64,000 bases of DNA from a virus. Numbering within the stretch: the first letter of the stretch is position 1; every line of letters begins with the position of its first letter. The position numbers and the translations under genes are program-made. Of the stretch, positions 2,748-58,192 are shown in pieces. The notes under the pieces were generated by a model. The model worked only from the letters and a program-made list of their open reading frames with translations, ran no database searches and was not told the origin of the DNA. The stretch spans positions 46,223 through 110,222 of the IMG/VR virus record IMGVR_UViG_3300025288_000013, one strand, 5' to 3'.

Positions 2748-2764
2748 TTGGCACGATTTTTGCT
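2748..2764 (+). promoter_or_regulatory. Class I sigma54-type (-24/-12) promoter
   Basis: TTGGCACGATTTTTGCT matches YTGGCACG-N4-TTGCW; about 50 bp upstream of the sigma-like gene. Confidence 0.8.
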
Positions 2765-2783
2765 GTGTTATAGTATGAATTTA

Positions 2784-2815
2784 AAACTTAACTTAAACTT
2801 AACTTAAACTTAAAC
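2784..2815 (+). repeat. AAACTTAACTT tandem repeat in the 5' leader
   Basis: About 2.5 copies immediately before ATG 2816. Confidence 0.6.
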
Positions 2816-3898
2816 ATGGAACAAGAAAAAATTTATGTGAACAATTTCACAAAACTATCACAAAATTATTTTGAATCAAGATCACAAAAAGATTTTGCCA
2901 AAATTTATGCAGAAATAAGAATAATAGCCATGTCTGCAGCTAAAGGGCTAACAGTAGATTCACATGATTACGAAAGTATAGTTGACGATATTTCTATGAA
3001 GCTTTATTTGAACTTTGATAAATATTATCAAGAAAATAAAAGTCTTTTATCTTTTGTCTTTGTTTCATGTAAACGAAAGTATTATACACTCAAGAAGACA
3101 TACAACAAAAGTATTTGTGAATCAGACATGATAATAATAAATGACAAAGACGGTGGAGAAACATCAAAATTTAATCAGGCTTTGACAAATTATTATGGCG
3201 ATTTTGTTGACCAAGAAAATGTGGAGGTTGATGCAGCCGATAACATGTTGCATTTATCGACAGATAGACAGATAGACAGAGTTAAAGAAATTGTTAAAGA
3301 AATGTGCTATAACGATAAAGGTGAGTTTAATGAAGACGAACATACCAAAATGATAGATATTCTTACACTAAGAAACGGCGAGTTTTCTCTTGGTGAAAAT
3401 TTGGAAGAGTTAATACCATATATAAAAAATGAAGAAGTTGGAAGCGTGTCAGACTTTATTAGTCCAACCATAATTTCTAATAAATATGGTATAAAGAACA
3501 GAGCAACTGTGTCGGCAAAAAGAACAAGAGCCATAGAAAAAATAAGAAACATAATTTTGTCTGATATATCAAATTCAGAGATTTTTGACAAAGTAAATTA
3601 TACAGGGACAAAAATTGTTAAAAAAGACATAAATGGCAAAATATACACACACACATATGAACTCATAGATGGTGTTGCAAATGGGGAATACAAAAAAGAA
3701 ATTTTGATTAATTCAAAGAAAACAACTCTAACAATAGGAAAATTTGAAAATGGTAAAAAAATAGGCATATGGCATCATTTTTTTGTTGAAAACGGATCTT
3801 ATATGGGATATGTAGATTATAATAGTGGTAAAAGTTTTGAATATACTGATATGGACGAAACAAGTATGGAAACACGTATAATGAAATTGTCTGTGTAA
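2816..3898 (+). CDS. Sigma70/ECF-like sigma factor with C-terminal MORN-like extension
   Basis: Region 2-like (DYESIVDDISMKLYLNFDKY..SLLSFVF), region 4 HTH-like (IISNKYGIKNRATVSAKRTRAIEKIR); C-terminal GKFENGKKIGIW-type repeats. Confidence 0.7.
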   Translation: MEQEKIYVNNFTKLSQNYFESRSQKDFAKIYAEIRIIAMSAAKGLTVDSHDYESIVDDISMKLYLNFDKYYQENKSLLSFVFVSCKRKYYTLKKTYNKSICESDMIIINDKDGGETSKFNQALTNYYGDFVDQENVEVDAADNMLHLSTDRQIDRVKEIVKEMCYNDKGEFNEDEHTKMIDILTLRNGEFSLGENLEELIPYIKNEEVGSVSDFISPTIISNKYGIKNRATVSAKRTRAIEKIRNIILSDISNSEIFDKVNYTGTKIVKKDINGKIYTHTYELIDGVANGEYKKEILINSKKTTLTIGKFENGKKIGIWHHFFVENGSYMGYVDYNSGKSFEYTDMDETSMETRIMKLSV

Positions 3899-3899
3899 T

Positions 3900-4547
3900 A
3901 TGAAGTATAACGAATTTTATGACGCTATTTTTTCTGTTGGTGAGAATCTTATTGTTAAGGCAGATTGCTCAAACAGTTGTTTTAAGCAATCTTCTGACTA
4001 TGTTACCATAATAGATATTTTTATAGATAATGGTATCATATGTTTCCATGTTGAATGTGAGGGAGAAGTGTTGCAAGATACTGATATGTGTCTGGAAACA
4101 AATGGCGTGTTTGATATAACAGCTGATGACATATTGAGTGTAGAAACCAACCAATATACAACAAAATACCTTAGCGATCTTGTTGATAGCAACAATGTTA
4201 TAAACATTGATTTGGTTGATATATCTGATATTACATTGACATCAATTATAGATATAAAAATGGATGTGGATATTGAGATAAAGAACTTGTCTGAATTAAT
4301 AAATAAAACCATAAACAACATAACATATTTGTCAAATAATTTGTTGTTTAATTTTACTGAAAAACAAATTATGATTTTGAACAAAAATGGAACCAATTAT
4401 TATGGTTATGATGAATTGGTTGGCGTGCCAGAATCATGTGAACCATGTGACCACATGGTTTTATATAATAAACTTAAACAACAAAAATCTTATTTAAGAT
4501 CATTAAAAACAATAAAAACAATAATTAAAAACAACAAAAATGGATAA
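3900..4547 (+). CDS. Hypothetical protein
   Basis: 215-aa ORF in operon. Confidence 0.7.
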   Translation: MKYNEFYDAIFSVGENLIVKADCSNSCFKQSSDYVTIIDIFIDNGIICFHVECEGEVLQDTDMCLETNGVFDITADDILSVETNQYTTKYLSDLVDSNNVINIDLVDISDITLTSIIDIKMDVDIEIKNLSELINKTINNITYLSNNLLFNFTEKQIMILNKNGTNYYGYDELVGVPESCEPCDHMVLYNKLKQQKSYLRSLKTIKTIIKNNKNG

Positions 4548-5063: not shown

Positions 5064-5519
5064 GTGTCCTTTTATCACACTAATATGAACAATAATAATT
5101 ATAATTACAATTTATCAAAGATAATGGATTCTTTGATTGAAGATTATAAAGACAACAAAATCAACAAATCTTTAATAGATAACTGTGTAATCTCATCAAT
5201 AATAAGAAGTATTGGATATTATAACTCTGATTGGTATCAAAAATTGGATTTGTATAGAAACAAAATGTGTGACAACATATCAAATTTTTATGGTACCGGT
5301 ATGACATTGGAACAAATTGATAAAATAGAGAGAGTGTTTATGTCAAAATACGTGAACAATAAATTGGCTACATTAGAAGCAAATTTTAGGGCGACATTAT
5401 CTTTGGTTTCTTATTGTAAGGGTCTTAGGGGCAGCATGATTGAAAATGAAATAAATAAAAGAATGAATCCACCAAATGTCAATAAAAAATTTCAAACCAA
5501 TACGAAACAGTCCATATAA
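5064..5519 (+). CDS. Hypothetical protein
   Basis: 151-aa ORF; start uncertain. Confidence 0.6.
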   Translation: MSFYHTNMNNNNYNYNLSKIMDSLIEDYKDNKINKSLIDNCVISSIIRSIGYYNSDWYQKLDLYRNKMCDNISNFYGTGMTLEQIDKIERVFMSKYVNNKLATLEANFRATLSLVSYCKGLRGSMIENEINKRMNPPNVNKKFQTNTKQSI

Positions 5520-47884: not shown

Positions 47885-47917
47885 GTTTTAATAAATGTAG
47901 TTTAATCTTTTAATTTT

Positions 47918-47958
47918 ATTGAAACGAACAAAAATTGGGCAATTTTGTTCGTTTCAAT
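47918..47958. terminator. Long near-perfect hairpin
   Basis: attgaaacgaacaaaa/ttttgttcgtttcaat. Confidence 0.65.
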
Positions 47959-48081
47959 TGGCTGTCGCACTATTTTAGTTCTATAAGCACATGATACGCT
48001 ATGTTTATACTAAATTTCAAGTTTGCTACAAGTAAATTATCTTTGTATCAAGACAAAATACCAACTATCAATTCGTGTATT

Positions 48082-48110
48082 ATAAACTATCCATATCTAT
48101 TGTTGTTACA
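48082..48110 (-). promoter_or_regulatory. Class II promoter TGTAAC-N17-GTTTAT
   Basis: In non-coding region. Confidence 0.7.
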
Positions 48111-48344
48111 GCATATCTAACATATAAGGTAATAATTTGATTATAAAAATAGCACAATCAAAACAAGGGTCAAATTGTTTTGAAAATAATAAAACACCAA
48201 AATCAAATTTGTGATTGCTTTTGAAATAATGCCATGATGTATGTGAGTTATTTTTTTTATTTTTATGTCGCCTATTTTATAGGGTTGCATTTGTGACAGT
48301 TCTATATGATTAGAAAGATTCTGCCTTTCTTGAGTGTTTTTTAC

Positions 48345-48373
48345 TAAAACCAACAATATTTGATTTTGTTACA
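48345..48373 (-). promoter_or_regulatory. Class II promoter TGTAAC-N17-GTTTTA
   Basis: In non-coding region. Confidence 0.6.
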
Positions 48374-48388
48374 ATACCATTTTACCAA

Positions 48389-48430
48389 ATCTTCAGTTTT
48401 GTATGAATTTTTGAATATAAAACTGAAGAT
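48389..48430. terminator. Hairpin, 12-bp perfect arms
   Basis: atcttcagtttt/aaaactgaagat. Confidence 0.5.
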
Positions 48431-48741
48431 ATAAGAACAATATTTAAAGTTATTATATTAAATTATTGTCAGTTTTATAAGCATGATACAACATTGTAAC
48501 ACATTTATAACAAATCTTTGAGTTTTGTTTAAGATTATTGAATTGCATTTTACTGTATCAATACACATTTATAATTAAGCACAATATATGTCCCTTTTAT
48601 TGATTTTGTGTTATAGACACTAACATAGCAGAAATATGGTATTAAAATAATGGTAATATAGAGGAGTTTGTGGGAGATATGTCTGACTAATTTGAGTATG
48701 GGTGTATACAGATATGTTTAAGAACATATTGTTAATACAAT

Positions 48742-57091: not shown

Positions 57092-58105
57092 TTACCATAA
57101 ACCACAATGTTTATGTGTTGTTACTTTTATATTGCTGTCTGACATGCCAGACAATAAAAAACTTATTAATTTTACGGTCCATCCGTTTCCTATCATTTCT
57201 CTTCTTCTTGTATCGCTAACAGCCTTTGTGTAGTTGTCTGGTACAGTTTGGATTCTTTCATGTTCTATGGGAGTTAAATTTCTGGCTTTTATTTTTTCAT
57301 ATAGTTCTTTTGTTAAGACCAGATCACAAACATTTTTATCAAACAAATGCCTATATTCTTCATTTATTATGTTTGGTATGCTTGTTCCACTCTGACCAGC
57401 CATAAGCGTTCTCGATTTTTGGTTTCTGTGCAATGGTATTCTTGACATAAATTTTGATTTCATGTTGCCCTCGACACCAGCCATAGTTTTGTAATATTTT
57501 TTGTCAACTTCTTTTTCTAAAATGTCTTCCAGAACCAAATCGCATGTTTGTTCTTCCAAACCATAAATGGGCATGTTGGTCCAGTACAATCTTTTTCTGT
57601 TTTGTGGTGAGAATCTATTACTGTTTATCATGACTGGCTGAACGCCAATTGTTTTAGTTATGATGTCTTTCCATTTTTTTGGCATCATAACATTTTCCAA
57701 CAAAAAGTATTTTGGCTTCTTTGTCTTTATTATGTGCACGTACTCCCAAAAAAGATATGACATACCATTAAACACACAACCATTATTCTTCATTCTAATA
57801 TACTCTTCGTATGATTCTCCTATAAGACCATTAAAATTACCATCGTTTATAGAATTTTGGAATGACAAATTTGTGCAAGGACTTCCACCCATAAACAAGT
57901 CTATGTTGTCTATGTTGTCTAGATTCACATGCCTAATGTCACCAAGTTGTATTGTGTTTGGATAATTATCTTGTGTTACTTTTATTGAGTATGGATTTAT
58001 TTCTATTGCATAGTAATTTTCATACTCAATATTTTGGTCATTTAGTGCTATTTGTCCACAACTCATACCATCAAAAGCACTAACAACATTTTTTAATTTT
58101 ATCAT
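57092..58105 (-). CDS. dcm: DNA (cytosine-5)-methyltransferase
   Basis: S.FDG.SCG, GGSPC, LLENV, QNRKRLYW, GNGW. Confidence 0.93.
   Translation of the reverse strand: MIKLKNVVSAFDGMSCGQIALNDQNIEYENYYAIEINPYSIKVTQDNYPNTIQLGDIRHVNLDNIDNIDLFMGGSPCTNLSFQNSINDGNFNGLIGESYEEYIRMKNNGCVFNGMSYLFWEYVHIIKTKKPKYFLLENVMMPKKWKDIITKTIGVQPVMINSNRFSPQNRKRLYWTNMPIYGLEEQTCDLVLEDILEKEVDKKYYKTMAGVEGNMKSKFMSRIPLHRNQKSRTLMAGQSGTSIPNIINEEYRHLFDKNVCDLVLTKELYEKIKARNLTPIEHERIQTVPDNYTKAVSDTRRREMIGNGWTVKLISFLLSGMSDSNIKVTTHKHCGLW
57097..57125 (-). promoter_or_regulatory. Class II promoter variant AGTAAC-N17-GTTTAT (direct-repeat copy)
   Basis: 27/28 identical to 58123-58150. Confidence 0.6.
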
Positions 58106-58122: not shown

Positions 58123-58151
58123 ATAAACTACAATGTTTATGTGTTGTTACA
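58123..58151 (-). promoter_or_regulatory. Class II promoter TGTAAC-N17-GTTTAT
   Basis: 18 bp upstream of the MTase ATG. Confidence 0.75.
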
Positions 58152-58163
58152 ACCATTATTTAA

Positions 58164-58192
58164 TGTAACAAAAATATGTGTTCTTTGTTTTT
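58164..58192 (+). promoter_or_regulatory. Class II promoter TGTAAC-N17-GTTTTT
   Basis: Back-to-back with the previous copy; heads the recombination operon. Confidence 0.75.

Follow-up and report, generated by a model that had tools for sequence, protein, structure and literature searches.

A divergent phage-encoded ECF-type sigma factor with a MORN-like tail, preceded by a putative sigma-54 promoter

We have analysed a 64,000-nucleotide (nt) stretch of viral DNA (hereafter the window), which corresponds to bases 46223-110222 of the IMG/VR record IMGVR_UViG_3300025288_000013, a linear contig of 110,222 bp that we call G000. On its plus strand, within the block of late genes that runs from terminase to head closure, an open reading frame (ORF) at 2816-3898 encodes a 360-amino-acid protein, P0001, with the predicted layout of an extracytoplasmic function (ECF) sigma factor followed by a C-terminal tail: sigma domain 2 (residues ~7-100; 2834-3115), an acidic linker modelled at low confidence (residues ~101-146; 3116-3253; predicted local distance difference test, pLDDT, below 50 at residues 109-115 and 126-140), sigma domain 4 with its helix-turn-helix (residues ~147-258; 3254-3589), and a tail of MORN-variant beta-hairpin repeats of the YwqK/MORN_2-like type (residues ~259-345; 3590-3850). 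We refer to this gene as sigma-MORN. Immediately upstream, and on the same strand, lie an element that matches the sigma-54 -24/-12 consensus (class I; TAAAGCTTGGCACGATTTTTGCT, 2742-2764, with its GG at 2750-2751 and its GC at 2762-2763) and a predicted start region and 5' leader (2765-2815), the start being placed from the usual geometry of sigma-54 promoters, in which transcription begins about 12 nt past the GC. Farther upstream are found an inverted repeat, TGACA-ATG-TGTCA (2648-2660), which resembles an upstream activating sequence (UAS) and is located inside the 3' end of ORF 2139-2744, and a class II-like site, TGTAACAA-N15-GTTTTT (plus strand, 1552-1581), 62 nt before the gene at 1615-2142. 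An initial annotation of this DNA had proposed that sigma-54 transcribes the sigma gene, that the product reads the class II promoters, and that T4-type late transcription follows.

Taken alone, P0001 falls below the Pfam threshold, has no usable match in PHROGs, gives nothing usable by tblastn or megablast against GenBank phages, and scores 12.5-14 bits with the sigma models, under every curated threshold (PF04542: 12.5 bits, E 0.013). A database search returned three close homologues, one of them labelled 'sigma24 family' by JGI, and an exhaustive profile search provided about 25 further family members, the other matches of that search covering the tail only. A profile built from just four sequences retrieved chance S100 matches from the PDB and was set aside. 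The profile of the 27-member family alignment (A3), by contrast, matches 5uxx_A (E 1.6e-6), SigK (E 1.8e-5) and Rhodobacter sphaeroides RpoE (E 7.7e-5), the alignment with 5uxx_A falling into two separate stretches, profile positions 34-101 (region 2) and 175-208 (region 4). Three conserved blocks are present in A3: one near the N terminus, with a pattern consistent with ECF regions 2.1-2.3; a second, S-P-x-x-I-A-x-x-Y-G-I-x-x-R-x-T-I/V-S-x-R/K-R-x-R-A, which fits the helix-turn-helix of region 4.2; and a third made of G-x-W / N-G-K repeats. R238 of the recognition helix is found in 27/27 members, and the core-binding helix also has invariant positions. When the members were scanned singly, Sigma70_r2 (PF04542) was detected in 12 of the 27 (best E 7.9e-9) and r4_2 in two of the 27. 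Two members of the family match TIGR02937 (sigma70-ECF) from end to end and above its curated cut-off, P0015 with 46 bits and P0021 with 49 bits, and for both the next-best model is TIGR02985, a Bacteroidetes ECF subfamily. The ESM Atlas gave only leads below 0.9, to sigma and MORN_2 clusters.

The structural evidence points the same way. With A3 as input, AlphaFold2 modelled P0001 at a mean pLDDT of 80.8, as compared with 54 when only four sequences were supplied. Foldseek, run with the whole model, returned no match at E <=0.001, and the fold was assigned from an exhaustive structural search at the level of domains (VIA-align), whose top 16 rows are all sigma-70-family factors (Z 7.3-9.5). 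In the case of the N-domain, these include CnrH (Z 9.5), SigW (Z 9.4; root-mean-square deviation, rmsd, 3.5 over 90 residues), SigK (Z 9.0), BldN (Z 8.8; rmsd 2.3 over 77), T4 gp55 (7d7d_F, Z 8.7; rmsd 2.8 over 88) and the sigma-2 domain of SigC (Z 8.4). Residues 147-252 match region 4 of sigma-E bound to -35 DNA (2h27_D, Z 6.2; rmsd 2.6 over 69), and the sigma-4 region also matches 3mzy_A (Z 6.6); the evidence for sigma-4 in P0001 is weaker than that for sigma-2. No sigma-3 fold match appears among the listed VIA-align rows, and the model shows no region 1.1, which leaves sigma-2 (regions 2.1-2.4, the part that in sigma factors binds core polymerase and the -10 element), a linker of ~45 residues and sigma-4 (the part that recognises the -35 element). 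The segments resembling regions 2 and 4 described in the initial annotation were thus confirmed by the family profile against the PDB, by the NCBIfam and Pfam matches of the relatives, and by AlphaFold2 with the fold search, and P0001 is the sole Sigma70_r2-like frame in the G000 contig. We consider it well supported, from sequence comparison and modelling, that P0001 is a highly divergent group-4 (ECF-type) member of the sigma-70 family with a MORN-variant C-terminal domain. That the protein no longer initiates transcription, serving instead as a DNA-binding regulator or, through its tail, as a decoy for core polymerase or for a host anti-sigma factor, would fit its sub-threshold scores, the lineage-specific insertion of ~25 amino acids in sigma domain 4 of the close subgroup, and the protein- or lipid-binding habit of MORN domains; we regard it as very improbable, since the 27 clusters conserve both sigma domains, down to invariant residues in the core-binding and recognition helices, the domain folds are modelled at high confidence, and relatives exceed the curated ECF cut-off.

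The tail is equally a family trait. Repeats of the MORN/MORN_2 type are tandem beta-hairpins of about 23 residues each, marked by G-x-W/Y and N-G-K signatures. The A3 profile matches the MORN N-domain of SET7/9 at E 1.3e-6, and MORN_2 (PF07661) is detected in 19/27 members (best E 6.5e-16), P0001 alone giving no Pfam match. AlphaFold2 places seven strands between residues 264 and 343, and VIA-align of residues 259-360 retrieves MORN4, radial-spoke and junctophilin structures at Z 6-7, so that the MORN-like extension of roughly 100 residues noted initially holds, at ~90-100 residues. MORN-variant repeats are kept, in varying number, in nearly all members, which argues that they belong to the function of the family. 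A complex prediction between the sigma part (1-258) and the tail (259-360) scored 0.01, below the mark, and counts neither in favour of a docked tail nor against one. MORN domains are protein- or lipid-binding modules, and ECF sigma factors with C-terminal regulatory domains are known (ECF41 and ECF42); we found no paper mentioning a MORN extension on an ECF sigma factor. Downstream, a plus-strand gene for a protein of 215 amino acids (3900-4547) begins 1 nt past the end of the sigma gene. Its location is one in which anti-sigma genes are found, but its product matches no family, and in the relative G001, described below, nothing similar adjoins the sigma gene.

G000 is a 30% GC contig, 64% complete by CheckV, and the sequencing runs that contain this stretch are DNA metagenomes from groundwater and aquifers only. 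Its genes include a large terminase, a head-closure protein, an SbcCD-like nuclease and a NAD-dependent ligase, together with many that are unassigned, and no tRNA genes were found in the window. A related-locus search over viral, metagenome and genome contig collections returned no relative, and the comparisons made here involve two other carriers of the sigma-MORN family and one fragment. G001 is a distant, incomplete contig of 126.6 kb whose family member is 25% identical to P0001; the proteins it shares with G000 are merely 25-47% identical, and there is no synteny around the sigma gene. G004, found through the family subfamily A4, is a complete genome of 129 kb with terminal repeats. L004 is a 5.5-kb fragment, 85% identical to G000, that excludes the sigma gene. 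The family comprises at least 27 clusters (at 50% identity) in large, low-GC phages without Shine-Dalgarno sequences, which probably infect Bacteroidota. In G000 itself a Shine-Dalgarno-like core precedes just 3.6% of the genes; this, the second-best matches of the family relatives to TIGR02985 and the MORN_2 leads together suggest a Bacteroidota host. TAnnTTTG, which is the -7 box used by sigma-A in Bacteroidota, shows no enrichment ahead of genes in G000, in G001 or even in the complete G004, and we count this in favour of the sigma-54 reading of class I given below.

We turn now to the element ahead of the sigma gene. The class I 15-mer, TGGCACGATTTTTGC, occurs exactly eight times in the window, once on the plus strand (2749-2763) and seven times on the minus strand; with up to one mismatch allowed the count rises to 12, as compared with 1.8 expected from shuffled sequence, and 0/100 shuffles attain 12. 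The whole 110-kb contig holds nine exact copies, eight of them within the invariant 22-mer TAAAGCTTGGCACGATTTTTGC. All nine are intergenic, have the same orientation as the next gene and lie 25-65 nt from its ATG, and class I, the plus-strand copy included, departs nowhere from the specified positions of the sigma-54 consensus, TGGCACG-N4-TTGCW. The exact match, the copy number and the placement show that the lone plus-strand class I promoter had been correctly described as sitting directly ahead of the gene: the element includes, at 2742-2744, the stop codon that ends the preceding ORF, and its GC is 53 nt before the ATG at 2816. Class I sites precede the NAD ligase gene, an operon that includes a DenV-like glycosylase, several small genes of unknown function, and the sigma gene. 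The 5' leader of the latter, which has no Shine-Dalgarno sequence, contains short ACTTAA(A) tandem repeats (2786-2813); the remaining class I sites share the leader AATGTATATTATATAAAC instead. One class I site is kept in L004, and G001 has six sites with the class I core, TGGCACG-R-TTT-TTGC, in flanks that differ from those of G000. Across the 15 sites of G000 and G001, the 12 consensus positions and the R after TGGCACG are invariant. One of the G001 sites reads ATGGCACGG..., which breaks the -35-like hexamer TTGGCA and keeps the sigma-54 boxes.

Sequences resembling activator binding sites accompany several of these elements. The 110-kb contig of G000 has one TGACA-N3-TGTCA, at 2648-2660, which puts it 101 nt upstream of the -24 box that precedes the sigma gene; a lone match placed at random would have a probability of ~1.6% of landing within 200 nt upstream of any of the nine class I sites. 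In G001, 5/6 sigma-54 sites (26970, 29885, 46305, 93713 and 108402; L020-L026) are preceded, at a distance of 15-90 nt, by arrays of TGACA/TGTCA pentamers. The decamers TGACATGACA/TGTCATGTCA in that phage adjoin sigma-54 sites in six of seven cases, and the seventh adjoins a degenerate TGGAAC-N5-TTGT site, with an array at 99754-99771. The layout in G001 looks like that of an enhancer-dependent promoter. Pentamer arrays are not present in G000, where 8/9 class I sites have no recognisable upstream activator site. Strengthened by these enhancer-like sites, the reading of class I as a sigma-54 element appears well supported by sequence, and we think it likely that sigma-54 recognises class I.

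Other results bear against a sigma-54 entry into the cascade. No sigma-54 site is found upstream of the sigma gene of G001, and the complete G004 has none at all despite its sigma-MORN gene. Neither the RpoN DNA-binding domain, in G000, nor a PF00158 enhancer-binding activator, in G000, G001 or G004, was detected (a weak PF00158 match in G001 proved to be an ABC/SMC-type ATPase and no enhancer-binding protein), and no RNA sequencing run is listed as containing the stretch. Of the proposal that sigma-54 transcribes the gene, then, the exact -24/-12 element and the UAS-like palindrome stand, and a cognate machinery on the contig does not; with neither rpoN nor a PF00158 activator there, the phage would depend on host proteins. 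Such machinery is described in Flavobacterium psychrophilum, in which sigma-54 promoters (motif SM4) precede chaperone, protease and gliding genes, three host PF00158 activators being reported with the chaperone and protease promoters (PMC9723704). Machinery of this type would be the likely one for the phage to borrow.

These absences would also suit a class I element that does not depend on sigma-54 and is read instead either as a sigma-70-like promoter, TTGGCA-N16-TATTAT within a block of ~40 nt, or by some other phage factor. A simple scan does score 2748-2776 as TTGGCA-17-TAGTAT (9/12), an A/T-rich TATA(T/A)A block is kept at a fixed distance 3' of TTGC in both G000 and G001, and the want of upstream activator sites at eight of the nine G000 sites fits it as well. 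Such a promoter, however, would leave the invariant spacer unexplained, and it does not account for the invariance of 12 consensus positions plus R over 15 sites in phages whose proteins are 25-47% identical, for the G001 site in which ATGGCA breaks the -35-like hexamer and TGGCAC is kept, or for the enhancer-like pentamer arrays of G001; moreover, the Bacteroidota-type host signals, with no Shine-Dalgarno sequences, argue against promoters of the TTGACA/TATAAT type (PMC9723704). On balance we hold this alternative to be improbable, more so than any of the rival assignments of class II discussed below. Separately, three unrelated IMG/VR contigs of ~40-44% GC (L002, L008 and L013) contain the 17-mer sigma-54 core as well and, downstream of it, a common segment ending ...CATACGGGAGCCAACCCAT; they may represent another phage group with sigma-54-type promoters.

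What might the phage sigma factor read? In an unbiased search for pairs of short words in G000, GTAAC-N17-GTTT ranked first (23 copies against 1.6 expected), and in the window TGTAAC-N17-GTTT occurs 12 times against 0.3 expected. The consensus of this class II motif is T-GTAACAA-N15-(G)GTTT(A/T)T. Twenty of the 23 copies are between genes or at gene edges, 16/23 within 100 nt before a co-oriented start, and L004 keeps three of the sites. In ECF promoters, a -35 element containing AAC is followed after 17 nt by a G/T-rich -10 element, typically of the CGT type, and autoregulation is common. Class II is ECF-like in its GTAAC and its 17-nt spacing. Between the copy at 1552 and the sigma gene, two genes farther downstream, the plus strand shows no terminator-like site, so that read-through, and with it positive feedback, is possible. 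Elsewhere in the window, a divergent, back-to-back pair of class II sites (58125-58190) separates a 354-amino-acid gene on the minus strand from the SbcD/SbcC operon on the plus strand, and a near-duplicate of the minus-strand site of that pair is found at 57124. Two further sites on the minus strand (48084-48110 and 48347-48373) face a stretch (47900-48700) with no ORF of 100 amino acids or more, which contains a hairpin-like AGAAAGG...CTTTCT element, is conserved in L004, and may encode small RNAs.

When the collections were scanned for class II, most of the matches were single and attributable to chance. Other candidate motifs in the two related phages were examined and dropped: the apparent bipartite motif TTAAC-N14-CACC of G001 corresponds to coding repeats, several genes at G001:87800-99700 having leucine-rich-repeat-like repeats (N-x-L-T-S-L-E-G-A-P) that mimic it, and GAAACY-N15-TATAW (G001) and GAAACTGA (G004) were too weak to call. 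TGTAAC is ~3.8-fold enriched 30-90 nt upstream of G001 genes, which we treat as a lead only.

A third motif, (A/G)ATAAATA, consists of a -10 element only and is found 10-60 nt before mostly large, structural-type genes in G000, G001 and G004; in the window, examples are at 5450, 8029, 13224, 13282, 18337, 25270 and 29847, among others. In G004, 25 of its 51 copies are upstream of starts, as against 2.7 expected, and within 70 nt of starts there are 26 sites in G000 and 23 in G001, mostly before large genes. The motif resembles the late consensus of T4 and cyanophages. Searches for the T4 late factors were negative: gp55 (phrog_234) had no match at E <=1 in G000, G001 or G004, the gp45 clamp (phrog_223) was not found in G000 or G001, both of them incomplete contigs, and hhalign of A3 with T4 gp55 gave a probability of 0.5%. 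With neither gp55 nor gp45 found, what is left of the T4-type late transcription in the initial annotation is the ATAAATA motif.

The comparison among phages is partly at odds with an assignment of class II to sigma-MORN. Class II is absent from G001 and from G004, both of which have the sigma family, and the CGT usual in ECF promoters is missing from its -10 element, GTTTAT. In G001 a second sigma factor is encoded, a small and canonical ECF protein (148 amino acids; Sigma70_r2 E 5e-13; G001:83093-83539, minus strand; L155), and, as G000 is only 64% complete, a further sigma factor is possible in its missing part. Lastly, ATAAATA is the only upstream motif common to G000, G001 and G004, which means that the sigma factor could be a late factor instead. 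The co-occurrence test thus had a mixed outcome, with class I and class II both kept in L004, class I without class II in G001, and neither in G004; and for the claim that the phage sigma reads class II, the over-represented, ECF-like motif held, its expected distribution among the carriers of the family did not.

Two rival assignments follow from these points. According to the first, sigma-MORN would be a late sigma factor, a functional analogue of T4 gp55 that reads ATAAATA before the structural genes, and class II would be left to a host ECF factor, to a further phage sigma factor in the missing 36%, or to host polymerase with a phage activator. To the sharing of the motif by the three family-carrying phages, and its likeness to the late consensus, can be added that in the complete G004 sigma-MORN is the only Sigma70_r2 match, or sigma-like gene, with no gp55 in sight, that G000 and G001 also have no detectable gp55, and that the structural search places T4 gp55 high among the matches of the N-domain. 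Yet its Z score is no better than those of ECF sigma factors, the profile comparison with gp55 is empty, and P0001 keeps, with R238 invariant, a sigma-4 helix-turn-helix that gp55 does not have and that a -10-only promoter would not need. We judge this possibility doubtful. The second rival holds that class II is read by a host ECF factor or by a second phage sigma factor, the regulon of P0001 being narrower or different. It draws on the additional sigma factor of G001, on the incompleteness of G000, on the abundance of ECF factors in Bacteroidota (seven in F. psychrophilum; PMC9723704), and on the failure of class II and sigma-MORN to co-occur in G001 or G004. However, no homologue of the small G001 factor was found in the G000 contig, G001 has no class II in spite of having this factor, which is therefore not its obvious reader, and it would be unusual for ~20 phage promoters to hang on a stress-gated host ECF factor. 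The small factor ends inside the recognition helix of region 4.2 (...GTVKG), so it may be truncated or frameshifted. This second alternative seems to us less probable again than a late sigma factor.

The phyletic pattern, then, favours pairing sigma-MORN with ATAAATA, and the architecture of the protein, with its conserved sigma-4, speaks for a two-part promoter of the class II kind. We lean, with considerable reservation, towards class II as the target of sigma-MORN; ATAAATA is a weaker candidate, and what remains goes to other arrangements, for example one in which TGTAAC serves as the -35 element alongside varying -10 elements. We regard the second step of the cascade, from the phage sigma factor to its promoters, as plausible but unproven.

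Taken as a whole, the best explanation that we can offer, and one that we put forward tentatively, is a cascade from host sigma-54 through a phage ECF-type sigma factor to the class II promoters. The sigma gene would be transcribed by host RNA polymerase with host RpoN from the -24/-12 element, which would be opened by an enhancer-binding ATPase, a protein that the phage contig does not encode. P0001 would then join the core polymerase of the host and steer it to promoters of the phage, for which the class II sites (TGTAACAA-N15-GTTTAT) that precede ~16-20 genes are the strongest candidates, and the class II copy upstream of the sigma operon could provide positive feedback. Of this scheme, the analysis establishes what fold and family the protein has and that the motifs exist, with their statistics and positions; host RpoN, the activator, the link from sigma-MORN to class II and any role for the tail are our inferences. 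A broader version, which we consider doubtful, is a three-tier programme without housekeeping-sigma promoters in a lineage of large phages that probably infect Bacteroidota: a host chaperone-type stress ATPase, acting at the TGACA/TGTCA sites, would fire sigma-54 transcription of the accessory genes and of the MORN-tailed ECF sigma factor, which would in turn serve class II, ATAAATA or both, the tail being a new built-in module that is either regulatory or replaces the contacts made by gp33 and the clamp in T4.

The proposed cascade combines features of several known systems. ECF41 (SnoaL-like) and ECF42 (TPR) also consist of sigma-2 and sigma-4 with an extra C-terminal domain, which replaces the anti-sigma factor as regulator; the extension of P0001 differs in being a beta-hairpin repeat of the MORN_2/YwqK type, and P0001 is encoded by a phage. 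T4 gp55, which acts with gp33 and the gp45 clamp, is likewise a phage-encoded and extremely divergent protein of the sigma-70 family with a matching sigma-2 fold, and the T4 late system shares with G000 a -10-only ATAAATA before structural genes. There is, however, no sequence relationship between the two proteins, and P0001 keeps sigma-4 and adds the MORN tail. The logic of the cascade is that of the flagellar hierarchies of Vibrio, Pseudomonas and Campylobacter, in which sigma-54 and an activator lead to sigma-28 (FliA) and from there to the next promoter class; these are cellular and encode their own activator, whereas G000 would borrow both RpoN and the activator from its host, and its second sigma factor is ECF-like. 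The textbook phage cascades of T4 and SPO1 both start from the housekeeping sigma factor of the host, that of SPO1 proceeding from host sigma-A to gp28 and then to gp33/34, while entry in G000 would be through the enhancer-dependent sigma-54. In the Bacillus phage SPO1, successive sigma factors, some of them phage-encoded, set the temporal classes (PMC13401047). Dependence of a phage on sigma-54 has a precedent in YuA of Pseudomonas aeruginosa, whose development requires the sigma-54 of its host (PMC5053324, citing Ceyssens 2008); YuA is an unrelated siphovirus of a proteobacterium, and no phage sigma factor acting after sigma-54 is reported there.

What is new here, then, is the ECF-MORN family, the TGACA-N3-TGTCA palindrome and the phyletic test. 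The family, with its at least 27 clusters, would give the ECF sigma factors a further, new kind of C-terminal extension, an orthogonal pair of sigma factor and promoter for Bacteroidota genetics would follow, and a phage group without a cultured member would have three promoter classes that can be tested. Placed behind an enhancer-dependent promoter, as we propose, the phage sigma factor would be expressed under the gate of a host signalling ATPase and, if this is true, the physiology of the host would be linked to the developmental switch of the phage.

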